A DNA stretch of 64,000 nt from Alphaproteobacteria bacterium (lineage in GTDB: Bacteria; Pseudomonadota; Alphaproteobacteria; UBA828), in the NCBI GenBank assembly GCA_963422645.2, contig CAXXVO010000002.1, positions 32,001 to 96,000 on the forward strand, written 5' to 3'. The notes beneath the pieces were generated by a model that saw only the letters and a list, made by a program, of their open reading frames with translations, searched no databases and was not told where the DNA came from. This document shows, one piece after another, positions 2,739 to 18,644 of the stretch. Every line of letters begins with the position of its first letter. The first letter of the stretch is position 1. A program made the position numbers and the translations under genes.

Positions 2739-4007
2739 CAGGGCGAATTTATTGTCCGCCCGTCGAGCAGGGTGAGCTGAAGTCGGGTCTGGCCATTCCG
2801 TTCTCGATGTGGCAGTGTGCCGCTCATGGCGACGCTGCCGGTCCCAGGTTCGTTCATTGATCTGCGCGCGGTCACGGTGCGCCCGACCTGGGGGGGCGCA
2901 GGAGCACCGGCGCTGGGACCGGTTGGTGGAGCAGCACCACTACCTGCGGTTCCACGGCGTCATCGGCAAGGGCCTGCGCCATGTCGCGGTGCATGGCGAG
3001 ACTTGGCTCGCACTGATCGGCTGGCAGCCCGGCGCGTTCAAGCTGGCCGCGCGCGATCGCTGGATCGGGTGGTCGGCGGAGCAGCAGTTCAAGCGCCTTC
3101 ATCTGATCGCCAACAACTCGCGCTTCGTCATCCTGACTGCGCACCGGGTTCCGAACCTGGCCTCGCGGGTGCTGGGGCTGAGCCTGCGGCGGCTGTCTGC
3201 GGATATGCAGGCGGTGCATGGATATCCGGTCTTTCTGGCGGAGACGTTCGTGGATGTCTCGCGATTTGCCGGCACCTGCTACCGCGCGGCCAACTGGCGC
3301 TCGCTGGGGCTGACGCGCGGCTTCGCCCGCGAGCCCGGCGGGGCGGCGCGCTGGCGCCACCACGGCCAGCCCAAGGAGGTCTTCGTGTTCGAACTGACCG
3401 ACGGCGCCGACTGTGCGCTGAGCCGGCCCGAGATGCCGGCACACTGGAACGCCGAGCAACACACCGAGCCGATGGCCGCGCCCCGGCTGCGCAGTCTGTT
3501 CGAGTGTCTGGGCGAGGTGCCCGAGTACCGCCACGCCCGAGGCAAGCGCTATCCGCTCAACACCATTCTGACGCTTGCCGTCGCCGCCCGGCTTGCCGGA
3601 TACCGGGGGGTGAACGCATTCGCCCAGTTCGCCGCCCTGCTCTCCCAGGAGCAGCTCGAGGCGGTGGGCGCCTTCTGGAGCCCTTCCAAACAGCGCTACA
3701 CCCCGCCCGCGATCACCACCTTCCACAACGTCCTTGCCGCGCTTCCGCCAGAGACCCTGGACGACGCCATCGGCCAGTGGACCGGACAGCATGGCAGCGC
3801 GCACGCGCCCGTCGCCATGGACGGAAAGGACCTGCGCGGCGCCTCGAAACAGACCGAGGACGGGCGCAGGATGATGGTCGCGGCGGTGGAGCATGACAGC
3901 GGCGTGGTCCTCGGCCAGGTCGAGGTCGACAGCAAGAGCAACGAAATCCCGGCCGTGCGCGAACTCTCCGGCAGTCTCGACCTCACCGGCCGCATCGTCA
4001 CCATGGA
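2739..4007 (+). pseudogene. ISAs1-family transposase with N-terminal DUF4338/DruA-like domain; frameshifted at a G7 run (2890-2896) and 3'-truncated
   Basis: HHYL, NNSRF.IL..NLASRVL, ETFVD..RF.GTCY.AANW (DUF4338), then ISAs1 motifs (RGKRYPL, DGK.LRG, KSNEIPA, IVTMD) that stop abruptly. CAGGGC-type left end at 2739. Confidence 0.8.
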
Positions 4008-4237
4008 TGGATGGATGCGGACGTGGCTGGAACCCTTGGCGCAAGCGAACCTGGGCGTCCCTCGGCGTCCACGCCGCGTGGCAGAGCGTCCGGTATCAAC
4101 GCAGGGGATCAGCGGACAACACCAGGGCCATCGGAGCAGAGGCGGTGTGATGACCGTAACCATCCGCCGAAGACCGCGGGGTATTTGGGGCTGAGTTTGA
4201 CGGCGGGCAGTGCCGGTTGAAGCGCAGGGGTCTCGGC

Positions 4238-5734
4238 CTATGCAGCCTGATCGTGCCGCTGGCTGTCTTGCCAGTTCCAGGGAAGGAGTTCTTCGAGCCG
4301 GGTCTGCGGCGTCTCCGCGATCCGGCCGAGCACGTCGGCGAGCCAGGCCTGCGGATCGACGTCGTTAGCTTGGCGGTGCCGATGAGGGTGTAGATCGCCG
4401 CCGCGCGCAGGCCGCCGCGGTCGGAGCCGCAGAACAGCCACGACTTTCGGCCCAAAGCGATACCCCTGAGCGCCCTCTCGGCGGCGTTGTTCGTCAGGCA
4501 GATCCGGCCGTCGTCGAGGAAGCGGGCGAACAGCTCCCAGCGCCGGAGCATGTAATCCATCGCCTTGGCCACGGGGGAATGGCGCGACAGCTTCCTGCGC
4601 TCGGCCTGCATCCAGTTCTTGAGATCGGCCAGCACCGGCGCGCTGAGCTCCTTGCGTACGGCAAGGCGATGTTCGGCGGAGTCGCCGACGATCCCGCGCT
4701 CGATGTCGAACAGCACGTCGATCCGCTTCACCGCCTCCAGCGCCGGCGGCGAGATCGGCGGCGCGGTCTTGCCCCGTCGCTTGCTCGTCGCGATGTCGGC
4801 GAGCTCGTAGAACTTCCTCCGTGAATGCGCCCAGCAAGCCCCGCCGATGATGGGCCCAGGCGATCTCCCGGCCACATAGAGGGCGTTGTAGCCGGCGTAG
4901 ATGTCGGCCTGGAGGATGCCGGCGAACGTCTTCAGGTGTTCGACCGGGTGATCGCCGGAACGGTCCCGCGAGTAGCGGAACAGCGCCGCCGGCGGGTCCG
5001 GGCCGCCGAACGGCCTGTCGTCGCGGACATAGACCCACGCCCGGCCGGTGGCGCACTTGCCCTTGGCCAGCACCGGCACCGGGGTGTCGTCGCCGTGCAC
5101 GCGCGCCGCCGCCATGACATGGGCCTCGATCAGATCATGCAGCGGCTTCAGCGCCACCGTGCAGGCGCCGACCTGGTCGGCCAGGGTCGACAGGCTGAGA
5201 TCGACGCCTTCGCGCGCGTAGCGGTCGCGTTGCCGGTTCAACGGCTGGTGCTGGCCATACTTCTCGAACAGGATCATCGCCAGCAGGTTGGGCCCCGCCC
5301 AGCCACGCGGCGTCGCATGAAACGGCGCCGGCGGCTGGCTGATCTTCTCGCAACGCCGGCAGGTGAACTTCTCGCGCACCGTCTGGATCACCTTCCACTG
5401 GCGCGGGACCGCCTCCAGCGTCTCGGTCACGTCCTCGCCGATCTTCGACAGCTTGTCCGAGCCGCAGCACGTGCAGGTCACAGGCCCCGGCACTACCACC
5501 CGCTCGCGCGGAAGATGCGCAGGCAAGGGCTTGCGGACCGGCTTGCGGCGGCTGAACCCCTTGACCCCGGTGGTCTCCGCCGCCGCCTGCTCGGCCGCAA
5601 GCTCGTCCTCGGTCGCGCTTGCCTCGAGCTCGTCGAGCTGGAGCTCCAGCTGGTCGAGAAGCCGCTGCTTGCGCTCCGAGCGCCAGCCATACATCTCGCG
5701 CCGCAGCTTCTCGATGGTAAGCTTGAGGAACGCG
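4238..5734 (-). pseudogene. tnpC: IS66 TnpC transposase, 5'-truncated and frameshifted near the C-terminus (about 4367)
   Basis: G.RSE, Zn-finger CTCCG/CRRCE, HGDDTP, QAD.YAGY, CWAHSRRKF, TNNAAER. The normal tail NDVDPQAWL lies in another frame. Confidence 0.88.
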
Positions 5735-6060
5735 TGTTGATGACGGTCTAAACCCGCGTTTATTCGCTTTTTTGGGGGCGCGTGATTTTGGTGGCGGCGT
5801 GGTTGACGGGTTTATGTTCCCGATGAATTGACCGCTTCTGTTGTTGCTGGACCTGTGGGGAAGTGGTCAGGCGCGGAGCGGCTGTCCACTTGTCCACAGG
5901 CCTCTTGCCGTCGCCCGCTTTTCCCAGCTTCGCCCAACTTCGTACACCTGACATCGAGATCGCCGGGGGTAGACTCGGACCGCTGAGAACGATGCGGCGC
6001 CGGCCCCGTTTGCTTGCCAGCAAGTGCCGACGCCGCACCCCGCGAGCCATGCCGTGCACG
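5735..6060 (-). mobile_element. Probable IS21-family right-end remnant
   Basis: TGTTGATG terminus falls exactly where tnpC is truncated. TGTGGACAAGTGGACAGC...CCACAGG hairpin-like subterminal sequence and a degenerate RRIVLSGPSL (IstB-tail-like). Confidence 0.4.
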
Positions 6061-6188
6061 GCTCAGATGCACAGTATCGTGCGGGATTTAGCGGGGGTCG
6101 AGCCCGTTATCATCGACCGCCGCGATGCAGAACCTCGGCCGCCTGTTCCACTGTCTGAACCGCTCCGGCTTTCCCGGAGGCTCCATCT

Positions 6189-6287
6189 TCAGACTTCCTG
6201 ACCTCGTGATGCTGGCTGTTCTGGGCAGCGTGCCGGGAACTCCTTGAATTCTGATACATTTCGGTTGTTTCAGGCGGTTTTTCGCTG
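6189..6287 (+). repeat. 99-bp exact copy of the IS left end at 34075-34173
   Basis: TCAGACTTCCTGACCTCGTG...GGTTTTTCGCTG is identical at both positions. Confidence 0.9.
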
Positions 6288-6569
6288 ATCTCGGGCCATC
6301 CGTCGGCGCTCTATGACGAGGTGCTGGCGGGATGGCGCCGGCTGGCGCTGCAGGTCACGACCCAGGGTCTGGTGCGAACCGAGGTCGTCTGGTTCAACTA
6401 CGCCCCCGACCGGATGCATTGGGCCAGCCACGCAGGCCGGAACTTCACCGACCGCCAGCGCATCAAGCGCAAGGCAGCCAACTGGGGCCGGCGCTACCAG
6501 GCCTTGCCGCCGGGCGAACGCCTCGCCGTGCTCGCCGCCATGATGGCCGTCGAGGCCGAAGACACGTGA
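6288..6569 (+). pseudogene. C-terminal remnant of a DNA adenine methylase-like gene
   Basis: ISGHPSALYDEVLAGWRR...RTEVVWFNY resembles the C-terminus of Dam/D12-class methylases. The 5' part is missing at the IS-end junction. Confidence 0.55.
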
Positions 6570-6571
6570 CG

Positions 6572-8104
6572 GTGTCGCACTGGCACGAAGACCTCGCCGC
6601 CCGTAACGAGGCCTTCTGCTGCCTGAAGGAGCTTCTCGAGCCATCATCCCTCGCAACCACTGTCGTCGTTGCCGTCCGGGAATGGGGGCAGGGGCTGCTG
6701 CGATCAGCCACCGCGCTCGCCCGGGAAAATGCCGCACTCGAGCAGGAGAACGCGGCCCTGCGCGAGCGCATCGCCGAACTCGAGCGCAGCGCGGCCCTCA
6801 ACAGCACCACAAGCAGCAAGCCCCCCGCCAGCGACGGGCTCAAGAAGAAAAGCGGAGCCCAGAGGCGCACCCAAAGCCAGCGCGGAAAGTCCGGCGGGCC
6901 CAGTGGCGGCCAGCCCGGCCACAAGGGAACCACCCTCGCGCGGAGCGACAGCCCGGACCGTGTCGTCGATCACCACCCCTCCACCTGTTCCGGCTGTGGC
7001 GTCGAGCTCTCGGACGCCGACCGGCAAGGCGCGCCCGCCTGTCGGCAGGTCTTCGACGTACCCGAGCCGCAGCCTCTCGAGGTCACCGAACACCGCGCCC
7101 ATCGCTGCCTCTGCGGCGCATGCGGCACGCTGACACGAGCCGCCTTCCCGCCGGGCGTCACCGCCCCGGTCCAGTACGGCCCTCGCATCACCGCTTGGGT
7201 GAGTTACCTGCTGTACGCCCAGTTCGTGCCCGAGAAGCGTCTGGCCGAACTCATGAGCGACATCTTCGCGGTGTCCATCTCCACTGCCACGATCGCCGCC
7301 ATGGGCCGGCGCACAGCGCAGCGCTTCGAGGGCTTCCTCGACCATGTCGCCGATCTGATCCGCACGCAGGCGCCGGTCAAGCACCTCGACGAGACCGGCC
7401 TGCGTATCGCCGCCCGTACCCGCTGGCTCCATGTGCTGTGCACCCCGTTGCTCACCGTCCTGCGCATCGGCGAGGGACGCGGCGATGTCGAAAAGAACCT
7501 GAAAGGCATCCTCGTCCACGACGACTTCGCCCCCTACTTCACCATCAAGGGCGTCCGCCACGGCGCCTGCAACGCACATCACCTGCGCGAACTCCAGGCC
7601 CTGATCGACATCGAGAAGGAGGAATGGGCGGCGAGCATGCACCGCCTGCTTCAGCGCGCGCGCAGGGCCGCCCGCTTCGCCCGTGAGAAAGACCGTCAAG
7701 TCCCCGCCTCCCTGGTGGCCCGCATCTCAAGGGCATGGGACCGTATCCTCGAAGAAGCCATCGCCTTCCATGAGGCCCAACCGCCGCTCCAGATCGCAAA
7801 GCGAGGGCGAAAGAAACGCCGCATCGGCCACAACCTCGCGCGCCGCCTTCAAAAGCATAAGGAGGGCTGCCTGCGCTTCCTCACCGACCTGCGCACGCCG
7901 TTCACGAATAACGAGGCGGAGCGTGACATCCGTATGAACAAAGTGCATGAGAAGATCTCAGGCGGCTTCCGCTCCCTGCAAGGCGCCTGCAACTTCGCCG
8001 GAATGCGCAGCGTCATCGTCACCGCTCGAAAGCAAGGCTGGAACATCCTGCAAATCCTGGCGCACCCGGAACCGATGCAGCTGATCCCTATACTGCGCTC
8101 CTGA
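6572..8104 (+). CDS. Single-ORF IS66-family transposase (ISBst12-like organisation); right TIR ends at 8269
   Basis: Coiled coil, NS..SSKPP.SD, GGQPGHKG, CSGCG/CLCGACG, HLDETG, VHDD, CNAHHLREL, FTNNEAERD. Terminus CCTGGGCAGTTAC at 8257-8269. Confidence 0.9.
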   Translation: MSHWHEDLAARNEAFCCLKELLEPSSLATTVVVAVREWGQGLLRSATALARENAALEQENAALRERIAELERSAALNSTTSSKPPASDGLKKKSGAQRRTQSQRGKSGGPSGGQPGHKGTTLARSDSPDRVVDHHPSTCSGCGVELSDADRQGAPACRQVFDVPEPQPLEVTEHRAHRCLCGACGTLTRAAFPPGVTAPVQYGPRITAWVSYLLYAQFVPEKRLAELMSDIFAVSISTATIAAMGRRTAQRFEGFLDHVADLIRTQAPVKHLDETGLRIAARTRWLHVLCTPLLTVLRIGEGRGDVEKNLKGILVHDDFAPYFTIKGVRHGACNAHHLRELQALIDIEKEEWAASMHRLLQRARRAARFAREKDRQVPASLVARISRAWDRILEEAIAFHEAQPPLQIAKRGRKKRRIGHNLARRLQKHKEGCLRFLTDLRTPFTNNEAERDIRMNKVHEKISGGFRSLQGACNFAGMRSVIVTARKQGWNILQILAHPEPMQLIPILRS

Positions 8105-8269
8105 ACTTCTCCGGCTCATCCTGAGTATCGCTGTCCTCTCATCTTGTTCGCGACGCGGCGTTCATCATCCTCTCGCGCTCAAGAGAGTAGGCACCCCCGC
8201 GGCGTGGGGGCGTTGACGCAAAAGGAACTGGCTTGTTCCATAAGAGAGAGGGGGTACCTGGGCAGTTAC

Positions 8270-8556
8270 AGGTAACCCAGCTGCGCCGCGCTGATCGACA
8301 CCGCGCCGCCCGACGTCGCCGGCCACTGGAACCGGCCGCGCTCAAGCCGCTTGGCGTAGAGCGACGTCCCGACCCCGTCACTCCAAAGAATCTTGACCAG
8401 GTCGCCTCTGCGTCCCCGAAAAATATAGAGATCGCCCGCATGCGGGTCGTGACCGAGATCCTCCTGGACCTGAAGCGCAAGCGTGTTCATGCCGCGCCGC
8501 ATGTCCGTCACCCCACTCGCCAGCCAGACACGAACCCCGCCCGGAACCGGGATCAT
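8270..8556 (-). pseudogene. tnpB: IS66 TnpB accessory protein, truncated by the single-ORF IS66
   Basis: MIPVP..VRVWLA.G.TDMRRG...KILW.DG.G..LYAKRLERGRF.WP, cut after AQLGYL. Confidence 0.9.
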
Positions 8557-8936
8557 CGCCGTGCCAGGACCGAAAGGACCCGCCCCAGCGCCGTGCCGTC
8601 CACCTCCCGGTCGACAATCACCCGTGCACCGTCCGCCAGCGCGATCTCCATCCGCCCCGCCGCCGGCACGGCGCCGGAACCGGCATCGGGCGGTGACGGC
8701 AGCAGGCGATCCGGCTCGACAACCACCGGCACGAAACCACCCCGCTCGCGAAACCGCCGCCGCCAGGTGAATACCAGGTTGGCGTTCACGTCGTTGCCCC
8801 GGGCCACCACCGAGACCGATACCCCGGGCCGGTAGCTCTCCGCGACGATCCGGCGCTTCTCCGCCTCGCTCCACCGACGCCGGGAGGTCGACGGCCTCGT
8901 CGCCAACCGCGGCGACTTCTCATCTACATCAGACAT
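8553..8936 (-). CDS. tnpA: IS66 TnpA HTH accessory protein
   Basis: RRRWSEAEKRRIVAES..PG.SVS.VAR...VNAN.VFTWRR. ATGA overlap with tnpB. Confidence 0.9.
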   Translation of the reverse strand: MSDVDEKSPRLATRPSTSRRRWSEAEKRRIVAESYRPGVSVSVVARGNDVNANLVFTWRRRFRERGGFVPVVVEPDRLLPSPPDAGSGAVPAAGRMEIALADGARVIVDREVDGTALGRVLSVLARR

Positions 8937-9236
8937 CTGCGATCGTGTCCATTATGGCCTTGGTGGACACCTCCAGGGTGTCCACTCCCAATCGGACAGC
9001 TTCACTCGATCACACTAGACCCGGTAGGCGGCCCACGCCGGAGGCTTACGGAGATCGTCCAAGGACGCCACGTGCGCCAGCAACCGTGAGAACACGCCAT
9101 CCGCCAGATCGACCATCGGTTGCTACCGACGCCGTACCTTCTCCGAGATGGACCGGTTGCACTGATATTGGCTTGTCAGTCACCGGCATGGCGACTTCAC
9201 ATGGTGACCTTCCATCCTGAGCAGGGTGGCTGATCG

Positions 9237-11750
9237 TTAGAGGTCCGGGAGGTAGTAGGCGACGAGCAATCTCGTGAGGATTTCGCCACGGAGCGCCAAA
9301 CGATCAACATCCTCTTTTGGCATGGCTGCGAAGTCGGTTGGGTAGTGCCGGACCTCGTCGCGTGTTGGGAGGTCCGCTGGAATCCAGGGCAAGGCATTGT
9401 CCTTCTGTCCGAGATAGGCCAACGCGAAGCCCGAGAGTTTTCCGTCGTCAGCAAAGTAGTGCAGGCGTTTTCGAGTAGCGTCCTGGACCTTGCGAAAGAC
9501 TGTGAGAAAGGACCGGTACATCCTAGTAGGCCAGCGGGTCGGGTAGCTGTCGGCGTCGAATAGGCCCGCGCCAGCGTCGCAACAAATGATGTACTCGGGG
9601 TCGAAAACATTCGTGCTGATAGAAGCTATCCGCCCAGGCTCCATCGGGTTAACGCCCAGATTCTCGAATACTCCACCATCGGTGAGCAGAACACGAGTCG
9701 GCGTACTGGTTTTCCCGTTCTTGACAAAGCGGTACTTGCGTTCAAGTGCAGGCAGAAAGACCGGATAGGCTGCCGAAGCGGCCACGGCATCGGCGACCAG
9801 AGCGTCTTCGGGGGCAATCGTTCCAAAACGCCAACAGCCGCTATGCCGACTTCCGAACCGGAATGCGGATCCGGTTCGCAGCTCGGTGGCATTGATAACC
9901 GTATCGAGCGATTCCCGGGAGACTTCGCGCACAATGGTATCGCCGAACATGGATTGAGCGATGACTTCCTTGAACGCCTCCGTGCGGCTGAACGTGCGCT
10001 CCACCGGCTGACTCACGCGATCAGGGTTGTTCGATGGGATCGCGACGCGAGCCAGGCGATGAAGTATGCGGGCGATGAAGCACAGACACGCGACAAAATG
10101 AACTCTGACAACCTTGCGGATGGAGCCCTGTAGAAACACCTGGCGAAAGATGTCGCGGTGAAGTCCTTTGTCCAGAAGCTGTAGTGCGCGCGCTTCAAAC
10201 TCCGGGAACGGATCGTCTGAATAGGCATACATTGCGGAGATCACAGAACCGCCAGACACACTCGAAATCACCTGGAGGCGATCAAGCAAATCCAGGTCGT
10301 GCAGAGCACGCAGACATCCCAGGTGAAACGCGATGGCGCGCGATCCCCCGCCGGAGAGCGCGAGCCCCACATTTCTCGGCTTCTGGAGGCGTGGCCCAAG
10401 CTGCGTCGTTGCTGCTGTGTTTCGTTCAATTCGAATGAAATTCTTGTCGGACAGTGTTGTCCTGAATGCATGCGCGCCAAGAATTGGATCGTCGGGATTC
10501 CCGGAGAGGATCAGGATCAAGCAGGTTCTTCGGGCGGAGACCGGGTCGGCTAGGAGCTGTGCGACGGCATCAATGTCGATATCGCTTGGGTGCGGCGAGG
10601 ACGAGGGGTGGGTATGCCAACTGCCGACGCAATCGACCGATCCGCGGAACCGGTCGCGCTTACTTTCGGCAGCCTCTATCATCCCTTTGACTCCGCAGGT
10701 GAAGTGCTCCTCGCTTGCGTCGCTGTCTGGCGGCGGTCCCTCCACCTCCGTGACCCAAAGCACGCCCGCGGCTTCGTTCAACTCACCAAATACCAGCCCG
10801 CCGGTCTCAATTCCTGGTCCCACCGTTCGCGCAGATCGTCTTGCCCATCCGCGCATTTCTCGCGCAGCAGTCGCAGATACCCGGACCGAATAGCCGCGCC
10901 CCTCGTCCCTGAGAGTATGTTCCGGGGGCCACGAAAACTCATGGACAGGTCCGGATTCTTCGCAAGTCCAGCCAAAGCCCGTGTGGCAGTCATCGGTCCC
11001 TTGGATCGCACGAGCGATAGAATTCAGCATGCGCGCTGACAGTCCTGCGAGATCGGCGTTGGAACCGATGAACGTCGGCTCCGAACAGCCAGGTTCTGGT
11101 TGAAATTCCTCGCCTGGCGCCGATCGCGGCCAGAAAGCCTGAAGCGGTCTCGCGAGCTGCGCACTTCGACACGCTTCGAGTTTGAGGCACCGAGTCAGGT
11201 CGAGCGTGCCGCCGCTATGGTTCCCTCGCGAAAGAGTAGCAATGCCGTTGGCGGCCTGACTGTCGATGGCGATGGATGCAATTGGAGGTCGCGTGTCCGG
11301 GGCGTCGCGTAGCACATGCTCCAGGGCCGTCCGAACCGCCATTGAGGCCGTGCAATCGAGCAGAAGGTCGACCATCGGAAGTGGATCGGCGCCTGTTACT
11401 CGTTGAATAAGGTCGCCGGTCGAAGCGACAGCTTCCAGATCGGGATCGATCCTTTTCAAGCGATCGGCCAGCGCGTGAGCCTTGAACCTTCCGATATCGG
11501 CGTCTTCAAAGCCTTGTCGTACTAGGAGACCGGGGGCGACCGTCTTGTTGTCTACAAGCTCTACCGTTCTGGCACCGGCCCGTACGACGCTTTCCGCCAC
11601 GTGGGTCCCTACAGCGCCGCATCCCCAAATCGCCACACGCTTACCGGAAAACCAAGCCATGGGGGATGCTTGATCCCGCCTCCTGGTGACCTCAGGACGC
11701 ATTTCCCTGACTCTGCACCAACCCACATCGGCCAAGACCGACCATTCCAC
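9237..11750 (-). CDS. ThiF/E1 + JAB/MPN peptidase + patatin phospholipase fusion (probably the 3' part of an E2-E1-JAB-patatin gene frameshifted at about 11770)
   Basis: E1: VAIWGCGAVG, VD..TV...LVRQ, DCTAS, PEPGCSEPTF. JAB: ETGG...GSWHTHP......SDID. Patatin: LALSGGGSRA, SSVSGGS, DGGV. Confidence 0.88.
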   Translation of the reverse strand: MEWSVLADVGWCRVREMRPEVTRRRDQASPMAWFSGKRVAIWGCGAVGTHVAESVVRAGARTVELVDNKTVAPGLLVRQGFEDADIGRFKAHALADRLKRIDPDLEAVASTGDLIQRVTGADPLPMVDLLLDCTASMAVRTALEHVLRDAPDTRPPIASIAIDSQAANGIATLSRGNHSGGTLDLTRCLKLEACRSAQLARPLQAFWPRSAPGEEFQPEPGCSEPTFIGSNADLAGLSARMLNSIARAIQGTDDCHTGFGWTCEESGPVHEFSWPPEHTLRDEGRGYSVRVSATAAREMRGWARRSARTVGPGIETGGLVFGELNEAAGVLWVTEVEGPPPDSDASEEHFTCGVKGMIEAAESKRDRFRGSVDCVGSWHTHPSSSPHPSDIDIDAVAQLLADPVSARRTCLILILSGNPDDPILGAHAFRTTLSDKNFIRIERNTAATTQLGPRLQKPRNVGLALSGGGSRAIAFHLGCLRALHDLDLLDRLQVISSVSGGSVISAMYAYSDDPFPEFEARALQLLDKGLHRDIFRQVFLQGSIRKVVRVHFVACLCFIARILHRLARVAIPSNNPDRVSQPVERTFSRTEAFKEVIAQSMFGDTIVREVSRESLDTVINATELRTGSAFRFGSRHSGCWRFGTIAPEDALVADAVAASAAYPVFLPALERKYRFVKNGKTSTPTRVLLTDGGVFENLGVNPMEPGRIASISTNVFDPEYIICCDAGAGLFDADSYPTRWPTRMYRSFLTVFRKVQDATRKRLHYFADDGKLSGFALAYLGQKDNALPWIPADLPTRDEVRHYPTDFAAMPKEDVDRLALRGEILTRLLVAYYLPDL

Positions 11751-11758
11751 GACCGCAA

Positions 11759-12655
11759 CTATCGCTGCACAGCCCGTTGTGCTGGATCATCGGCTGACGA
11801 CGAGACATTCAGCTCTCGCAGCTTGTCTGCGTCGGCAGTAGCGATTTCCCATACTGCGAGATGCTGAAGGGCTCGACCGCCCGGGTCTATTCGGCGCATC
11901 GGGGTACCGAGCACTACGGCCAGCGGGGTCACGGCGCCGCTGTTTCGCGCGTACAGCCCGAGTTGGCGGATGAACGGACCGTAGTCGAGACCGTGAGATT
12001 CCAGCTCTTTCAATAGGGAGTGGACAGTCTTTGGGTATTCGAAAGGCAGGTTCCTATGGAGCAAGATTGCGGGAGCGAAGTGGGCCGGCAGTTCATGACC
12101 ATGCTCCTGCCAGCCGACGATTTCGGTGCGATGGTGTCGTTCACGTAGTTCCGCCAACCCGAACCAAGGCGAGTCGTCAACCGGAGGAGTATCCGCCCTC
12201 GGCACAAATAAGCGGTCAACGATTGGATAGGCGACCGGCGGATGGAGTGGCGCGTCGTCGGGATCGAGGTTGTTGACTGCTGCGTCACGTATCCAGGAGT
12301 CTAACCGCTTGACAAAGCCGTACATCCCGTTTTCCGGGCGCCAGTCGGCGGAACTCCCGTAGAGGCAGAGTTGCCTCCGCCACTGGACGTGATTGAAGCC
12401 GGAGAAGCGAACATGCGGAGTCACGACCAGTGGATGCTCGAACGGGAAGGTAGGAGGTACGAGCACGCAGAAAGCCTCACGTGCTCGCACCGGTAGCCCA
12501 TCCTCGCCCCGCTCCAGGCCGTCGAATCGAATGCTTATCTCGAACAGGCGATAGGCGTCGACAAGCTGAGTGGCTTCGTAGAGCTGTACGGTGCCGTCCG
12601 AGGCATCCGCAATCTCCCTAAGCTGTTCCCAGGCGAGTTCGAAGGCATCGGCCAT
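11759..12655 (-). CDS. Prokaryotic E2 (UBC-like) domain protein, 5' part of the frameshifted fusion
   Basis: VPPTFPFEHP...HVQW.RQLCLY...DWRP...FVKRL..W (E2 with Cys in LCLY). TGATG coupling to the upstream MBL. Confidence 0.8.
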   Translation of the reverse strand: MADAFELAWEQLREIADASDGTVQLYEATQLVDAYRLFEISIRFDGLERGEDGLPVRAREAFCVLVPPTFPFEHPLVVTPHVRFSGFNHVQWRRQLCLYGSSADWRPENGMYGFVKRLDSWIRDAAVNNLDPDDAPLHPPVAYPIVDRLFVPRADTPPVDDSPWFGLAELRERHHRTEIVGWQEHGHELPAHFAPAILLHRNLPFEYPKTVHSLLKELESHGLDYGPFIRQLGLYARNSGAVTPLAVVLGTPMRRIDPGGRALQHLAVWEIATADADKLRELNVSSSADDPAQRAVQR

Positions 12656-13779
12656 CAGGCCCGGCCGTACGTGTGAGCACTTTCGGGAGCTTCGTTTGAG
12701 CCCTTCGCTGCATCGGCGGCTTCCGAAGCGGTCATGGCGGCGGTCGCCACGCCGGCGAGCACGATCTTTCCATCCTTAAGTTCAGCCATGATCGGCTCGT
12801 CCTGATCCATTGTGCAAAGAAAGGACTCGGTGGTCGACTCGTACTGCGTCTTGGCCTTTGCATGGGGAGGGTTGTCACCGGCCTTGTTGGAGGACGGTAC
12901 CGTATTGGAGCTGGATATGACCCGATTGGGTTTCAAAGACGCCTTCTCCATTTCCTCAACGATGTGCTTCTTGAGCTTCTCCTCGTCGTCCCCTTCCTCC
13001 TTCCAGTACATCGCGGCCTTTGAGCAGTGGTGCGGTGCCAGCAGCACGTTCCATGCGAGATCGTCGTCTTCGTTGACGCCAAATATTCTCTTGATGATCG
13101 GGTAGGAAAGATCACCGAGGAGCAGCGCGCGCAGTATCTTGTCTCCGTCGTAAAGCGTGACCTGCATGCCGAGGCTCGTGTCGTTCCGCTCGCCGGCGTC
13201 ATCGTCCTTGAACGGGGCATGGACAAATGCCCGGAACTTGTCAGACACGTCCTTTTCGTCAATCGTGGTCACTTCGTTACCCGGTATCGTCAACCGATCT
13301 TCCGGAAAATCCTTGTAATCGTCCTCTTCCAGCAACTCCGAGTAGCCGAAAATACGCACGCGGTCGCCGGCGCCTGGATCGCCCTTGGCCTCGATCGTCT
13401 TCTTGACGCGCCGTTCCGCCTCCTTCTTGAAATCCTTCGCGTCGTCGCAGAGATCCTTATTATACTCGGCAAAGATTCTGGGCGTGAACCACAACTCGCC
13501 AATATCTACCTTGTCGAGGAGGTCCGAGAAACCCCGGCAATGGTCCTGATCAGGGTGAGTCAGAGCAAACACGGCCAGGTACGGTCGTCCATTGACCTTG
13601 GGCAACCGTTCTGAGAGCTCATCGACAACGGCCCAGCTGGCATCGTCGTCGTCGTCGGACTTTTGCAGATGATTGAGATCAACCTGCAGATACGTCTTCG
13701 AGTCGACAACAATGGATGTGCTGTCGCCATTTGCCACCGGCCAGAAGACCAGTCCGCGGTCAGGAAGTTCGAAGGCCAT
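12655..13779 (-). CDS. Metallo-beta-lactamase-fold hydrolase with a low-complexity C-terminal tail
   Basis: FWPVANGDST, LTHPDQDH, LLGD, APHHCS, ISSS. Ala-rich tail ending SAHTYGRA. Confidence 0.85.
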   Translation of the reverse strand: MAFELPDRGLVFWPVANGDSTSIVVDSKTYLQVDLNHLQKSDDDDDASWAVVDELSERLPKVNGRPYLAVFALTHPDQDHCRGFSDLLDKVDIGELWFTPRIFAEYNKDLCDDAKDFKKEAERRVKKTIEAKGDPGAGDRVRIFGYSELLEEDDYKDFPEDRLTIPGNEVTTIDEKDVSDKFRAFVHAPFKDDDAGERNDTSLGMQVTLYDGDKILRALLLGDLSYPIIKRIFGVNEDDDLAWNVLLAPHHCSKAAMYWKEEGDDEEKLKKHIVEEMEKASLKPNRVISSSNTVPSSNKAGDNPPHAKAKTQYESTTESFLCTMDQDEPIMAELKDGKIVLAGVATAAMTASEAADAAKGSNEAPESAHTYGRA

Positions 13780-13874
13780 GTTTCATGCTCCGTTTGGTTT
13801 TGGTTTTCGTGTTTGGCAAGGTTGATGCAGTGCTGACTTGAACGCGGTCTAATGGTTTCGGGAAGCAAAGATCA

Positions 13875-15755
13875 TCATCGTACACACCGTGTGACAAACC
13901 CATTGCCGCCGCGTGCTGTAAGCAACGACACGCCATCTTCGATGTTTGTTTGAAAGACTTGTCGAGCTACTTTGCCGTACAGCTTGACTGCCTTTGCGTC
14001 TGGATGCCCGTATTGATTGTCGACCCCGGCGCTGATCAAGACCGTGTCCGGGGACACAAGTAGCGCCATTTTGGGATGAGCCGCATTCTTTGAGCCGTGA
14101 TGCGGGGCACTCAAGACGTCGGAAGAAAGACTATTTCCGAACAATCTGGTTAACCGCTTATGCACATGGCTCCGGTTCGATCAACATGCTGTAGGTAAGG
14201 GGTTTTGCATTGGTGGCGATGCGGAAGAGCGAGCGGAAAGCAGCGTGGCGGGTTTTGCGGCGGTTGAAGCGAAAGGCGAACTCATCGAGATAGGCCTGCA
14301 GATGCTTGCGGCGCAGCCCGTGGTAGACGCCTCGCGCCCATCCTTTGAGGTTGGAGAAGACTTGGTGGATCCACGGCAGGACGAGGTGAGCGGCGGTCTT
14401 CCCGACGACATGGACATTGTGGCGATCGGCGGGGACCGCAGCGTAGCCGGACCAGCCGTCGGTTTTCGCGATGGCGTCGGGATCGGCGGCGGTTTCGACG
14501 AAGTGTCCGAGGTCGGCGGCGCCGTAGGAGGAGATTTCGGCCAGCCGCAGGCGGCCCGGGATGGTTCCATCCCCCAGTTCGATGGCGCCGACGATGAGCA
14601 TCTTGCCGTCGTGGCTGCGTCCTTGCCCTCCGGTGGGAGGATCGTCTTTGGTCCGGAATGGAAGGCTGGCCTCGTCGATTTCCACCAGGCCCGACAACGG
14701 GTTGCGCTCGGGGTCGACCATGCTGGCGCGCAGCTTGTGGGCGAGCAGCCAAGCGCTGCGGTAAGAGCCGATACCGAGCTGTTTCTGGAGCTGCAGGGCA
14801 GAGATGCCGTTGGAGTGGGTCGCCATCAGGTAGGCGGCCCAGAACCAGACGGTGAGCGGCAGCTTGCTGGCGTGCAGGATCGTCCCGGCCGTCACCGAGG
14901 TCTGCCGGCGGCAGCCGGCGCACTCGAAGGTGTGTGCTTTTCTGCGCAGCGCCCATCCCTTTTCATGGCCGCACGCGGGACAGACGAAGCCGTCCGGCCA
15001 GCGCATTTCGATCAGCCAGGCGGCGCAGGCGTCATCGTCCGGGAACATGTGCTGGAAGGCGAGGAGGCTGTCGGCGACCTGTTTCATGTGGTGGCTCCGT
15101 CGGCAGGAACGTATAGGCAACATTCTACCCGTTCTCCCGCCCTAACCTCAACCTCAACATCTGGTGGCAAACTCTCGCGACCGGAGCCATGTGCATAAGC
15201 GGTTCTGGTTATTGTGTCCCAGCGGTCGTTTTCCGTATCTCCCGTTATCAGATAAGGAAACCCATTCCCGCCAATTCCCGACAACTTGAGGACTATGCTA
15301 CAGTTGTTGGAATTATCCATGTCTTCACTATGCGGAGAAAACAGCTCATAGGAAAAATACTTGGAAAGCCCATTCAGTTTTCGCGAATGGAGGTCCAACC
15401 GTACCGAGAGCTTCTTTAGGGGCTTTCCTGTATTCCTTCGCCGGCGCTCATGCTTGTTGATAACCTTGAACACGTCGGTGGCATTATCGGTATCCTTGTA
15501 ATACTTCGGATACATGATCCAATTGGGTTTGTACTCTCCCAGAATGTTGTCAACCCCATACGGGTCAGCATGGTCGTTATCGAACCCTGTCAATACGAGG
15601 CCCGCTAAGTCCTGATTGCGGAGAAACACCTGCAATTGCTTCTCGATTGCTTTAGCGTGTTCGTCGGGCCAGCGCGAATCGACGATCACGGCTTCTCCGC
15701 GGTGGCGGATGGCGATCAACTCACCCTGTCCTACGTATACCGTCAGCGTCTGCAT
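13875..15755 (-). pseudogene. ComEC/Rec2-like MBL-fold protein split by an IS1595 insertion
   Basis: 5' part: MQTLTVYVGQGE, TGFDNDH, NSNNCSIVL, ITGDTE..RWDTITR. 3' part: LFGNSL..DVL.APHHGS, ISAG..NQYGHP. Removing the IS and one TSD copy rejoins the halves in frame. Confidence 0.88.
14153..15203 (-). mobile_element. IS1595-family element, complete; transposase at about 14158-15087
   Basis: Perfect 24-bp TIRs ACCGCTTATGCACATGGCTCCGGT and 8-bp TSD TCTGGTTA (14145-14152, 15204-15211). CPAC/CAGC, VEIDE, KTDGW, EFAFRFNRR. Confidence 0.95.
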
Positions 15756-15757
15756 TG

Positions 15758-16684
15758 CTATTGCCCACTCCGTTCGCTGATGGCCCAATACAGCGATTGG
15801 TTCAATTCTCTCTCGAACGCACTCACCGCCTGTGCCGCAGACCCGAACTGCCGTCCGCTGAAGTCCTCGTAGACCCCTGCGCACACGCTTGGCAGCTTCT
15901 TGGCCAGAACTTGGTAATAGGAAGCCTCTCCGTCCTCCGATGTGTCTATTTCGGGGACCGTGACATCTATCGATGACCCGTCAACCAGTTCCAGCTCTCC
16001 CTTCCAATACAGAGTGCCGGCGCGTTTCGACCAGTACGGCTGAAGCGACGGGAAGAGGTCTGGAATGGTCGCACTATCCCTGGTCCGGACTTCCTTGCTG
16101 TGCCCCGCCTCTGTCTTGCTCAGCTCCGGCCTCGATCCAAGGGGCCAAACGGGTGCGTCTCTCGTAAGGGTGACTTTCGCGGGTTCGACCTCGTAAACGG
16201 CATCGTCACCCCGTAACAGGATGTAGTGCCTGACGCTGTAGCGTGACGCCGCCTCTCCACCAGCCAGCCGGGAAACGACGAGTAGTGCATAAAAGAAATC
16301 AAGGTTGTGCTTTTCGTGATTCACTATCCTTCTGTAGGTTGCAATGTCGCCGCCGCTGAGGTTTGGAAATCCATTCACATGATGTGTGTGCCAATTGCCA
16401 AGATGCTCAACTTCAGGGCGCGCGCTCTCGATCTGGCGAAATATCTCCGCTTGGTAGTCGCCGTCCTGGAAGAAACTTGTGGTGGACCTCCGCGCATTCG
16501 GTCCAGCCTCGATGACACCGGTAACCGTGACCTCCAATGAGCCATCGGCGCAGCGCCGAAACCGTCCTACGATCCGCCCACCCGTCTCGTCATGGTCATA
16601 ACGATCGCAGTCATCGAAGATCGACTCCAGTACCAGCGAAGGGATCGATAGCGTAGCGTTGGCATCCTTTAGGTCGCTATTCAT
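15758..16684 (-). CDS. JAB/MPN+ metallopeptidase with an additional C-terminal domain
   Basis: DETGG, LGNWHTHH......SGGD (E, HxH, S, D). RBS GGAGG before the ATG at 16684. About 110 extra residues follow. Confidence 0.85.
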   Translation of the reverse strand: MNSDLKDANATLSIPSLVLESIFDDCDRYDHDETGGRIVGRFRRCADGSLEVTVTGVIEAGPNARRSTTSFFQDGDYQAEIFRQIESARPEVEHLGNWHTHHVNGFPNLSGGDIATYRRIVNHEKHNLDFFYALLVVSRLAGGEAASRYSVRHYILLRGDDAVYEVEPAKVTLTRDAPVWPLGSRPELSKTEAGHSKEVRTRDSATIPDLFPSLQPYWSKRAGTLYWKGELELVDGSSIDVTVPEIDTSEDGEASYYQVLAKKLPSVCAGVYEDFSGRQFGSAAQAVSAFERELNQSLYWAISERSGQ

Positions 16685-17519
16685 TGGAACCTCCACAAAC
16701 TAGGCAACCCTCCTGCCGATGCAGGGTGATTCTTTGCAGCTCGAAGCTCTTGCTGAATGGATGTATCGGTCGATTTCCCCAAACCACGTAATTTTCCGGG
16801 ATAGCGGGAAGAAACGCTGGCCGTTGTGGGGCCAGCCGAGCCAAAGCGTCCATCACATAGCGCACGTGAAAAAGCGTGATGAACCCGATGTCTACCGCGA
16901 GGCCTGGGGAATCCTTTATCTCTTGAGGATCCAATCCGTACATTTGCTCCCGGTCTTCTTCGGAAGCGAGATCAATCTCCCTGACACCGTCTCGGAATTT
17001 AGTTCGTTCGAGAACACCCTCCAGACAAGCAAGACACCCACTCTCGCCCGGACGATAACCAAACACCTCTCCGCCAATCCCGCGGGTGAACACTTTTCCG
17101 ACAACGAATGGTGTTTCATTTCGAACACACAATTCGTTCATTTGAAATCGTGTCGGATCATTGTCGGTGGCAAGTACGACGATGTGGGAGCGTTGGACCT
17201 CACTCTCCAAGCCATGCCACTGCATCAGATCTTCTTCGACTTTCAGTACAGAAATATCTGGGTTTCGATCCTTGAGTACGTCTTCCAGTGCATCAACCTT
17301 CTTGCGACCGACAAATCGAAGTCCGCAAACATGCCGAATCACATTTTCGGATTTCATCACGTCTTTATCGATCAACGTGAAGTGTTTGACGCCTGACATG
17401 ACAAGTTGGAGCGCAACCTGGCCCCCGCCAGACCCGCAACCTGCGATGAGTACACGGGATTCGGCGAAGGCCTCGACGTCAAACAGACCTTCAATTCTCG
17501 CAAATAGGTTTTCGTGCAA
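16677..17519 (-). CDS. ThiF/MoeB-family E1 adenylyltransferase
   Basis: TTG start with GGAGG RBS. FARI, LIAGCGSGG, IDKD.....NVIRH, VGRKKV, ATDN, and Zn pairs CLAC and CLVC. Confidence 0.9.
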   Translation of the reverse strand: MHENLFARIEGLFDVEAFAESRVLIAGCGSGGGQVALQLVMSGVKHFTLIDKDVMKSENVIRHVCGLRFVGRKKVDALEDVLKDRNPDISVLKVEEDLMQWHGLESEVQRSHIVVLATDNDPTRFQMNELCVRNETPFVVGKVFTRGIGGEVFGYRPGESGCLACLEGVLERTKFRDGVREIDLASEEDREQMYGLDPQEIKDSPGLAVDIGFITLFHVRYVMDALARLAPQRPAFLPAIPENYVVWGNRPIHPFSKSFELQRITLHRQEGCLVCGGSNE

Positions 17520-17520
17520 T

Positions 17521-18048
17521 TCAGGTGCCCTCCCGCTCGGGCCAATTGCCGGTAGTGGACCACAATGCATAGCCGCTTAGCCATCGCCGACACAGTTTCA
17601 AGGTATGAACCACATCGTGTCGCCCGGGATTCCAGGTTTCCATGGCGCCAAAAATGCAAAGAGAGCCGTCAAGCCAGAGATGAGGAGATGATGGGTCTAT
17701 CGGATCGGCTGTAACCACCGGGGACTTGTTCGGATACCCGTGGGGTAGCGTGATGCATAAACGGATATCCTTCTCTTGGCCTGGTTCAGTAAGAATTAAT
17801 TGTATTTCCCTATTCTCCGTTATAGATACGCGAAATGGTTCACTTTCGGCAGCAAGACCATCAAGTTCCTGCGATATCCTGTTCGGGGAGATATCAGGCA
17901 GGAAGACGGAAATGGGCACCAGACATGCCTTTTGTTGTCCGCTTCTCTCTACAACATAGGCACGACCGCGTACCGCGACGTCATCCAGAATTTCTCCGGG
18001 TCGGCTGCGGAGATCCATCATGGATAGAGGTTGGAAGTCGATGTGCAT
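17521..18048 (-). CDS. Phd/YefM-like domain fused to an E2 (UBC-like) domain
   Basis: N-term SMMDLRSRPGEILDDV...GRAYVVERSGQQKACLVP (Phd/YefM pattern). C-term LPHGYPNKSP...SPHLW.DGSLCIF...WNP...RWL..Y.LW..TGNWP (E2). Confidence 0.75.
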   Translation of the reverse strand: MHIDFQPLSMMDLRSRPGEILDDVAVRGRAYVVERSGQQKACLVPISVFLPDISPNRISQELDGLAAESEPFRVSITENREIQLILTEPGQEKDIRLCITLPHGYPNKSPVVTADPIDPSSPHLWLDGSLCIFGAMETWNPGRHDVVHTLKLCRRWLSGYALWSTTGNWPEREGT

Positions 18049-18054
18049 GGCAGA

Positions 18055-18429
18055 TCAATGGGCAATGCCCGCACCGGGCCAACGACGCTGAACGCAATAG
18101 ACTTCGTATTTGGCTAGCCATTTGGCCGCTCGCGCAATGACGAAGCGGAGGTCATGACGTCCAGGGTTCCAAAAATTCGGATGCAAGTAGCAAAGTTGAT
18201 TATCGGTGTACCGATGAGGGGAGGGTTGCAGCGCAGGTGTCCGGACGAAAACCTGGGGCATCGCATTCGGGTACGACTGCGGGAACGTTACTGCCAGTGT
18301 GTAGTAGCGGAGCGACGTCTGTAGCGCGACCAAAGCCATCAATCCGCCTGCGTTGGTGGGGTGCGCCTCGACGTAGTCGAAGTGCTGCTGCGCGGTCGCA
18401 ATATCCCGTTGGATTCTTGTCAGATTCAC
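18055..18429 (-). CDS. Stand-alone prokaryotic E2 (UBC-like) protein, 124 aa
   Basis: GTG start overlapping the upstream TGA. FPQSYPNAMP.V...SPHRY.DNQLCY....WNP...KWL.KYEVY.....WPG. Confidence 0.8.
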   Translation of the reverse strand: MNLTRIQRDIATAQQHFDYVEAHPTNAGGLMALVALQTSLRYYTLAVTFPQSYPNAMPQVFVRTPALQPSPHRYTDNQLCYLHPNFWNPGRHDLRFVIARAAKWLAKYEVYCVQRRWPGAGIAH

Positions 18430-18620
18430 CGCGAGTCTCCACGGGCGCTGTATTCGCCTCCTAGGTCTTCCCTCATCGTGATCGGCTTGCGATAGCCGCT
18501 TTCCGCAGCAGCGCTTCCGCCGAGCTCCCGCACCTCGCCGTTGGGCAGGATTTCGATCGGGGAGTCCTCCTCCTCGTCCAAGATCGCCTCGAGTTCGTGG
18601 ATTGTCGGTTTTCTCGCCAT
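18426..18620 (-). CDS. 64-aa acidic peptide, candidate conjugated modifier (...REDLGGEYSARGDSR)
   Basis: First gene of the operon. AGGTGA RBS, GTGA coupling to the E2, GG motif near the C-terminus. Confidence 0.7.
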   Translation of the reverse strand: MARKPTIHELEAILDEEEDSPIEILPNGEVRELGGSAAAESGYRKPITMREDLGGEYSARGDSR

Positions 18621-18644
18621 TTCGCGTCACCTATGAGGATCGTG

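Follow-up and report, generated by a model that had tools for sequence, protein, structure and literature searches.

A patatin-bearing 6A-MBL operon with a split cap2_3 gene in an insertion sequence-ridden island of an alphaproteobacterium

The pair formed by a metallo-beta-lactamase (MBL)-fold gene and a gene for a combined E2-E1-JAB protein is a known and named bacterial defence system. It appears as row 6a in the work of Iyer, Burroughs and Aravind (Iyer 2006), and later papers name it MBL, 6A-MBL or 6A_MBL and describe a tested anti-phage system with ubiquitin-related components. In those papers the phage testing is attributed to van den Berg et al. (2024), phage protection is reported for systems of Pseudomonas aeruginosa, and a preprint counts 6A-MBL among the known jumbo-phage defences of that species. 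Here we describe a locus at positions 9237 to 13779 of a 64,000-nucleotide stretch (the window) of an alphaproteobacterial genome of the UBA828 lineage (GenBank assembly GCA_963422645.2, contig CAXXVO010000002.1, positions 32,001 to 96,000). Judged by its sequence, the locus appears to be a little-described subtype of 6A-MBL that bears a patatin-like phospholipase. The explanation that we consider probable is that of a two-gene 6A-MBL operon of a patatin-fused subtype, most likely inactivated in recent time by a real insertion of two nucleotides, in an island ridden with insertion sequences (IS).

Related systems share parts of this machinery. According to the Ledvina preprint, the cGAS enzymes of CBASS carry a conserved disordered tail, which is adenylated by Cap2 and cleaved by Cap3. 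The Bil and Bub systems, which stand in defence-island contexts, likewise encode E1, E2 and JAB-type enzymes, and accounts of them describe E1 and E2 as separate proteins in many such systems and a Bil peptidase that trims its precursor to expose a C-terminal Gly. Their conjugated moiety is a beta-grasp ubiquitin-like protein, whereas in the present locus, where no ubiquitin-fold gene was identified in the operon, the MBL enzyme itself is predicted to take that part.

The locus consists of three consecutive open reading frames (ORFs) on the minus strand, at 12655-13779 (374 aa), 11759-12655 (298 aa) and 9237-11750 (837 aa). The first gene of the operon encodes the MBL-fold protein, and its stop overlaps the start of the E2 frame by one base. 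The second ORF is the E2 (UBC-like) half of a broken cap2_3-patatin gene (PF14457 Prok-E2_A, E 1.2e-18) with the candidate catalytic Cys97 at 12365-12367. It terminates at a TAG at 11761-11759, and its C-terminal VQR together with that stop is an out-of-frame product of the insertion. The downstream frame (9237-11786) is open from 11786, that is, already before the E2 stop, as the initial annotation had stated. About 27 nt are shared by the two frames. The first start of the downstream frame is the GTG at 11750, 8 nt past the E2 stop. This frame encodes an E1 (ThiF/adenylation) domain (10929-11741; PF00899, E 3.8e-18) whose Rossmann G-x-G-x-x-G motif starts at 11622-11624, a JAB/JAMM metallopeptidase domain (10449-10916; PF14464 Prok-JAB, E 5.2e-8) and, at its C-terminus, a patatin-like phospholipase domain (9240-10391; PF01734, E 9.9e-20, 72 bits against a cut-off of 27.7), and it ends with the stop codon at 9237-9239. 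The JAB site comprises Glu (10806-10808), H-x-H (10608-10616), Ser (10584-10586) and Asp (10575-10577), all with checked codons. The patatin site comprises an oxyanion motif G-G-G-x-R (10338-10352), Ser (10254-10256) and the Asp of D-G-G (9678-9680). The invariant Cys of a PEPGCSEP loop (11085-11087) is a candidate for the E1 catalytic residue. It corresponds to C523 of P0001, an intact homologue, whose loop 516-526 has low pLDDT in the AlphaFold 2 (AF2) model. A scan of 9000-14300 for promoters and terminators gave one promoter-like and two terminator-like sites, with no excess over shuffled sequences.

Both genes fall within the curated 6A-MBL families. The MBL protein passes NF058524.1 '6A-MBL_enzyme' (290.2 bits, cut-off 220). 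P0001 passes NF058523.1 '6A-MBL_cap2_3' with 345.5 bits (cut-off 320) over positions 5-653 of the 665 of the profile. In the window, the E2 ORF covers positions 4-254 of that profile (80.9 bits) and the E1-JAB-patatin ORF positions 271-653 (253.2 bits), so that each lies under the cut-off by itself and the two together span the profile. The uninterrupted E2-E1-JAB polypeptide, which the 2-nt insertion breaks in the window, is found in homologues. As in 6A-MBL, an MBL-fold gene precedes a gene for a single E2-E1-JAB protein, with the same gene order and a stop/start overlap, and the system is mobile and sporadically distributed. Of 77 related loci, 71 have an MBL homologue immediately upstream; in the other six the upstream DNA is short or missing or the N-terminus is truncated. 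The window type differs from described 6A-MBL in that its gene is split by a frameshift and in that cap2_3 has about 385 extra residues, which are the patatin lipase; the NF058523.1 model ends at its position 665, equivalent to residue 703 of P0001. The patatin-bearing form was not found described in the literature searched, where operon tables in supplements may list it. The word 'patatin' has no occurrence in Iyer 2006 or in the Ledvina preprint and none in the two relevant 6A-MBL papers searched for it, and searches for work that combines Cap2 and Cap3 with metallo-beta-lactamase, or any four of JAB, Cap2, metallo-beta-lactamase, patatin and ubiquitin-like, found none.

The initial annotation had proposed a single polypeptide of about 1,140 aa with four domains, broken by a 2-nt frameshift, and asked whether full-length fusions exist. 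They do. With the 837-aa ORF as query, 849 proteins scored at E <= 0.001 among 8,000 candidates. Among the 120 matches listed (64-95% identity), 103 are 1,106-1,143 aa long and 17 are 885-1,072 aa long, none is near 837 aa, and nearly all have all four Pfam domains. Where the gene is intact it encodes a single protein of about 1,137 aa, and P0001, at 95% identity, is the closest of the matches listed. Among the best 150 representatives of 50%-identity clusters, at least 29 contain the fusion in full (1,118-1,181 aa), each as one continuous match from residues ~3-49 to residues ~1,131-1,138 with 38-61% identity; 558 cluster representatives match at E <= 1e-30. The 77 related loci come from species-representative genomes and were found with E1 motifs of patatin-bearing proteins, which biases their patatin share upward. 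One ORF encodes the whole E2-E1-JAB-patatin fusion in 29 of these loci; in two the fusion has a truncated N-terminus, and two are broken elsewhere. In 32 loci E2-E1-JAB and patatin are two abutting or overlapping genes, 11 have E2-E1-JAB without an adjacent patatin (in two of these a patatin lies one gene further on), and one has E2-E1 only. One plasmid of Streptomyces carries the parts as four separate genes.

The difference between the window and its intact relatives is two bases. At the junction, which in the window reads ...DDPAQRA in one frame and AAIVAVVEW in the other when aligned to intact homologues (protein alignment A1), the window has 50 nt and the homologues have 48, and in the DNA alignment (A5) all four homologous loci used (L020, L036, L010 and L011) show a 2-nt gap opposite the TGTG at 11768-11771. 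Together with the domain matches and the intact homologues, this bears out the proposed single polypeptide. Short-repeat frameshifts are common sequencing and assembly errors, and several members of the same clade are fragmented in metagenome assemblies, where such fragments could also be errors. An error that hides an intact gene is nevertheless very unlikely. Logan contigs of four runs, of which X15, X17 and X18 are three samples of one study and X19 belongs to a second, match the window over 11620-11848 with no differing letter and no gap, and the extra bases are therefore present in the DNA itself. The contigs of X15 and X17 cover 9000-14178, that of X18 10980-13126 and that of X19 11620-11848, with word depths across 11620-11848 of about 5 to 51; one of the four runs is possibly the source of the window itself, and such contigs lose rare variants. 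On these matching contigs from two studies an assembly artefact was rejected.

Clade members broken at other sites include P0121, P0122, P0136 and P0141 and loci L032, L037, L024, L036 and L025. Their breaks are frameshifts near residues 150, 160, 301 and 370, genes in several pieces, N-terminal truncations and a truncated MBL, and they reflect either recurrent decay or metagenome-assembly errors.

The overlap of the frames and the TGTG repeat that the insertion creates might suggest a programmed frameshift, which would control how much E2 is made by itself and how much as part of the full-length protein. Such a frameshift is scarcely credible here. The four homologous DNAs do without the two bases and are read straight through, the whole fusion stands in one ORF at the 29 loci mentioned above and an E2/E1 frame change at none, and no slippery heptamer was seen in the sequence. 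This candidate was rejected on the grounds that homologous DNAs are without the extra bases and that no relative has the same frame change.

More serious is the possibility that the split is tolerated and that E2 and E1-JAB-patatin are translated as separate chains, with GTG 11750 as the re-initiation site for the latter, in a 6A-MBL system that still works. We regard this as possible, if doubtful. All 137 positions invariant in the alignment of 34 fused homologues are kept across the two window ORFs, and the codons of the E2 Cys, the JAB H-x-H and the patatin Ser and Asp were verified one by one, which agrees with the earlier statement that the catalytic residues are intact. The break falls at the E2/E1 boundary and leaves the domains complete in both pieces except for residues 297-301, the GTG is close behind the E2 stop, E1 and E2 are separate in Bil and Bub and in the neighbouring system of the window, and the split sequence is identical in runs of two studies. 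Against a working split stands the absence of any other example: the E2/E1 junction is uninterrupted in all of the 77 related loci, a consistent split of homologues at this site having been named beforehand as what would speak against the fusion. A search with the 298-aa E2 ORF gave no more than 39 proteins of 163-522 aa, scattered in length and mostly singletons, and in five short fragments inspected the break points differ or the protein is simply cut short. The break lies inside a predicted helix (residues 291-307) that links E2 to E1 in the AF2 model of P0001 (pLDDT 79.8, pTM 0.71), and no Shine-Dalgarno-like motif was seen before GTG 11750. The modelled docking site of the MBL protein lies on the E2 piece, which would have no tether to E1, JAB and patatin. 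Additionally, the island is decaying, with IS copies and a split MBL gene next door. We therefore hold a recent inactivation of the window copy to be the probable outcome. Identity to P0001 is 86.9% for E2 (residues 1-290), 98.5% for E1, 94.9% for JAB and 92.2% for patatin. Added decay of the E2 piece was considered and rejected: the lower E2 identity is not a sign of decay, because intact homologues show the same gradient between themselves (81.7% for P0001 against P0002). No second copy of the system was found elsewhere in the genome.

The MBL protein has no Pfam match. Its best fold match in the PDB is the ComEC nuclease-type beta-lactamase-like domain 9ic4 (E 1.5e-10), and its metal motif H75-x-D77-x-D79-H80 (13540-13557) follows a pattern, H-x-D-x-D-H, that is invariant in 40 of 40 aligned sequences. 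The AF2 model has a pLDDT of 85.9, with residues 348-353 and 367-374 below 50. In 71 of 72 MBL proteins, that of the window included, the chain closes with P-x(4-9)-[Y/F/W]-G and a variable stretch of 0-6 residues; the exception is a truncated gene. The extension behind the Gly is absent in 15 of the 71 and is one residue long in 10, two in 30, three in 10, four in 5 and six in 1. Pro365 and Gly372 are invariant in 40 of 40 aligned sequences, and in the window the codon of Gly372 (12664-12666) is followed by RA and the stop. By sequence, such a tail has the pattern of a ubiquitin-type precursor and would parallel the C-termini of type II CBASS cGAS enzymes. We infer that the JAB domain would remove these trailing residues, RA in the window, and that activation would take place at Gly372. 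The terminal residue of Enterobacter CdnD is Ala, and the true last residue of the MBL protein could therefore be used instead.

A model of residues 1-575 (the E2-E1 part, alignment A3) in complex with the MBL protein (alignment A4) supports binding of the MBL protein to the E2 domain. Its ipSAE is 0.72 and the best of three controls gave 0.00; the ipSAE mark is reached by 58 of 80 solved complexes and by 2 of 110 mismatched pairs, counts that apply roughly here, because our own alignments were used for the model. Contact agreement between runs is at least 92% and the partner pLDDT at least 86. To the confident part of the modelled interface E2 contributes residues 11-24, 41-46, 57-61 and 109-120, and the MBL protein contributes residues 287-320 and 344-361. 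The latter stretch is that of the conserved tail helix (351-358), which the model docks on the E2 domain. Part of this score may be a memory of the solved Cap2-CdnD complex (7to3), though the MBL protein is unrelated to CD-NTases. If the docking model is right, the frameshift leaves E1, JAB and patatin on a different piece from the E2 Cys and the site where the MBL protein docks. The proposal of the initial annotation that the MBL tail is conjugated thus gains plausibility from the tail motif, the disordered tail in the model and the controlled complex model.

Domain by domain, the operon parallels type II CBASS, which joins a CD-NTase to Cap2, Cap3 and an effector such as the patatin CapV or CapE. 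The E2-E1 part resembles Cap2 both in sequence (PADLOC PDLC00857, E 1.4e-88, residues 10-553 of P0001) and in fold, with Cap2 chain 7to3_A as the top Foldseek match (E 2.2e-20); the closest solved relatives by sequence are the Cap2 chains 7tsq, 7tsx and 7to3, and Atg7 is also among the best fold matches of the fusion protein. The JAB domain resembles Cap3 (9ild_A, TMt 0.74), with PADLOC models of CBASS JAB proteins matching P0001 down to E 1.1e-16. The patatin fold resembles the filament of the CBASS lipase CapE (9ion_C, TMt 0.68), further fold matches being 4pkb and 1oxw (patatin) and 5fya (PlpD). As with CD-NTases, the partner enzyme has a conserved disordered C-terminal tail. The differences from type II CBASS are that an MBL hydrolase replaces the CD-NTase, that the Cap2, Cap3 and effector parts are in one chain, and that the patatin matches the CBASS phospholipase effectors of PADLOC weakly (E 1.9e-4). 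No CD-NTase family matched any ORF scanned between 9.2 and 18.6 kb, and no cyclic-nucleotide sensor domain was found. The proposed analogy with ExoU, a ubiquitin-activated lipase, holds for the patatin catalytic motifs and goes no further: profile A3 matches chain 4qmk_A (E 4.3e-6) in a stretch limited to residues 753-814, some 60 residues that surround the oxyanion and Ser motifs.

All 34 aligned fused proteins share the patatin residues G768-G-G-x-R772, S800 and D992-G-G. The window has them too, and its Ser turn carries Ser in place of the first Gly of a G-x-S-x-G-like turn. Between the Ser and Asp motifs of P0001, residues ~842-889 (window ~9990-10130) form a long helix followed by a poorly conserved segment of low confidence, and the corresponding region of the separate patatin of genome G293 is hydrophobic (segment 110-128). 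This segment may be a lid or a membrane-binding element.

In 67 of the 77 loci a patatin is linked to cap2_3, whether by fusion, as the adjoining gene or with one gene in between. In a second sample, an even set of 400 other genomes of the phylum in which cap2_3 was counted above the curated cut-off, nine genomes qualified, with cap2_3 frames of 744-815 aa and one cut by a contig end; seven of the nine frames lack a patatin and one is accompanied by a separate patatin gene. The gene behind cap2_3 encodes a patatin in one case, a protein with four hydrophobic segments in four, a second MBL in one and a protein with two segments in one, with no clear candidate in two; segments were taken from a Kyte-Doolittle scan and ORFs from a simple ORF finder. 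Three of the four four-segment proteins are mutually homologous (E 1e-27 to 1e-32) and are related to the third genes of patatin-less loci. In patatin-less 6A-MBL operons a third gene (207-271 aa, with three or four hydrophobic segments) often overlaps the end of cap2_3; such genes lie at 656-1450 of L088 (minus strand), 3642-4388 of L090, 3630-4427 of L091, 6194-6886 of L054, 6189-7004 of L073, 6181-6981 of L075 and 3588-4211 of L095. Six of these seven proteins are mutually related (E 1e-5 to 6e-55), and they match no Pfam or NCBIfam family. They are candidate membrane effectors of 6A-MBL. The position behind cap2_3 thus looks like a variable effector slot with mostly membrane-acting fillings, as in CBASS. 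Most likely the patatin fills this slot and its fusion to cap2_3 is a further step; the operon position supports the earlier view of the patatin as an effector. The metal site of the MBL protein is kept with or without a patatin, and the patatin is therefore an addition to the MBL enzyme and not its replacement.

By analogy with type II CBASS, the system would work as follows. The ComEC-like MBL enzyme would present its disordered C-terminal tail with the invariant [Y/F]-Gly. The JAB domain would trim the 0-6 residues behind the Gly and would also undo the conjugation. E1 would adenylate the tail and hand it as a thioester to the E2 Cys, which would conjugate the MBL protein to a target. The patatin effector would attack membrane lipids, so that the infected cell is killed or arrested. 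Since the effector is fused to the conjugation machinery, the two probably touch physically, and the patatin is probably switched by protein contact or conjugation and not by a diffusible messenger; it is this Rosetta-stone reasoning that suggests gating of the lipase by conjugation. On this point the overall interpretation in the initial annotation goes beyond its evidence, and for the architecture, the catalytic residues and the conjugated MBL tail it holds well. It was also incomplete, since 6A-MBL had already been named and tested and the copy sits in a decaying, IS-ridden island.

A bolder form of this mechanism can be put forward tentatively. Patatin-bearing 6A-MBL would be a messenger-free relative of CBASS, in which the lipase is switched on by covalent attachment of the MBL Gly tail or by its release under control of JAB, and the acceptor of the tail would be the fusion protein itself or a partner. 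Such a relative is compatible with the data because the effector is fused, patatins alternate with four-segment proteins and no cyclase was found. In another variant, the Atg7/Atg3-like machinery would attach the tail to a membrane lipid, as in the lipidation of Atg8, and the patatin would act on that lipid. This variant is decidedly unlikely, and less likely than the covalent switch.

Several points weigh against the reading of a recently inactivated, patatin-fused 6A-MBL operon that works in this way. Apart from the insertion the gene shows no damage, with every one of the 137 invariant positions kept. Loss of function is deduced from the DNA, and GTG 11750 could permit re-initiation. The patatin stands behind cap2_3 in only one of the nine genomes of the unbiased phylum sample. 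In the complex model it is the MBL tail helix that docks, on the E2 domain; the model does not bring the terminal Gly into the E1 site, and the last residues are not confidently placed. Finally, the whole proposed working, from conjugation and trimming to the lipase and defence, is carried over by analogy from type II CBASS.

The fusion is frequent in public sequence data, and its distribution is sporadic. Homologues 55-91% identical to P0001 occur in metagenome-assembled genomes (MAGs) titled Terriglobia, Arenicellales, Binatia, Spirochaetia, Longimicrobiales, Actinomycetes, Paracoccaceae, Gemmatimonadota, Chloroflexota, Myxococcota and Defluviicoccus. The MBL partners in loci L010-L037 are 64-94% identical to the window clade and come from about ten phyla or classes by MAG title. 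A relative is present in 3 of 20 other species of the genus of the window (40-51% identity), in none of 40 genomes outside the genus, in 2 of 400 genomes sampled from the phylum and in 20 of 72,556 plasmid records. These sequences suggest that cross-phylum horizontal spread was recent. Sporadic spread, plasmid carriage and the lowest GC of the window at 10-18 kb (0.54-0.60) likewise indicate that the island was acquired horizontally. Two distant versions were seen in the same genus: in G012 (C6:2909986-2913409) E2-E1-JAB and patatin are in separate frames, and in G011 (C1:2128745-2136940) the two parts are 4.7 kb apart, with a TAG inside one. Runs X1-X14 hold 5-19% of the sampled words, and we draw no claim on habitat from them.

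The breadth of MAG names, together with the fact that patatin-like lipases act in host interaction in other bacteria, could suggest that the patatin-bearing form serves host interaction or lipid metabolism of symbiotic bacteria and not phage defence. This is unlikely, given that curated anti-phage models are passed by the MBL protein and by the intact fusion and that the parallel with type II CBASS runs domain by domain. The sporadic distribution (3 of 60 relatives, 2 of 400 phylum genomes) and the 20 plasmid records also point away from it, as does a patatin that alternates with four-segment membrane proteins in one slot in the manner of CBASS effectors, and no secretion signal or secretion-system context was found in the operon.

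Directly upstream of the 6A-MBL operon, in the same orientation, is a second ubiquitin-like/MBL system (13875-18630, minus strand). It comprises two weak RWD/E2-like ORFs (18055-18630 and 17521-18048; E 0.005-0.008), a ThiF E1 (16677-17570), a JAB peptidase (15758-16696) and a ComEC-like MBL gene. This MBL gene is divided into 15084-15884 and 13875-14165 by an IS1595-family element (~14152-15180, transposase 14158-15123) that lies inside it. Both systems stand in tandem with the second MBL gene whole in 3 of the 77 loci, namely L020 (a Paracoccaceae MAG), L010 (a Terriglobia MAG) and L012 (a Binatia MAG). Full-length, 100% identical copies of this IS1595-type element number at least 18 in the genome (40 of 99 candidates scored), which indicates a recent expansion. 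In the four runs its words reach depths in the thousands, where the flanks have 5-56. X15 and X17 each have one contig that passes directly from 14176 to 15180 and skips the IS; the shorter side has 25 letters, which is too short for bridging. At the other end, nested IS66 elements (4096-8936) abut the 3' end of the operon. They include TnpA/TnpB-like ORFs (8266-8936, minus), an IS66 transposase (4096-5694, minus) and, between other IS66 parts, an IS66-type transposase with DUF6444 (6332-8104, plus). A 461-aa ORF at 2809-4194 (plus) matches DruA of Druantia (E 1.6e-21) and then DDE_Tnp_1-associated and DDE transposase families.

The window copy itself, broken and in a decaying island, is of limited value. 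The fusion family is easy to obtain, with at least 29 distinct 50%-identity clusters that contain the whole fusion. The literature searched on 6A-MBL does not give its mechanism, and the patatin-fused and patatin-adjacent forms offer an entry to it. A slot for membrane-acting effectors behind cap2_3 suggests that the MBL enzyme has the role of the CD-NTase and is not the killer, and the invariant [Y/F]-Gly tail with its variable extension predicts a precise site of trimming and conjugation that can be mutated. If the messenger-free relationship to CBASS is true, conjugation would replace the cyclic-nucleotide signal.

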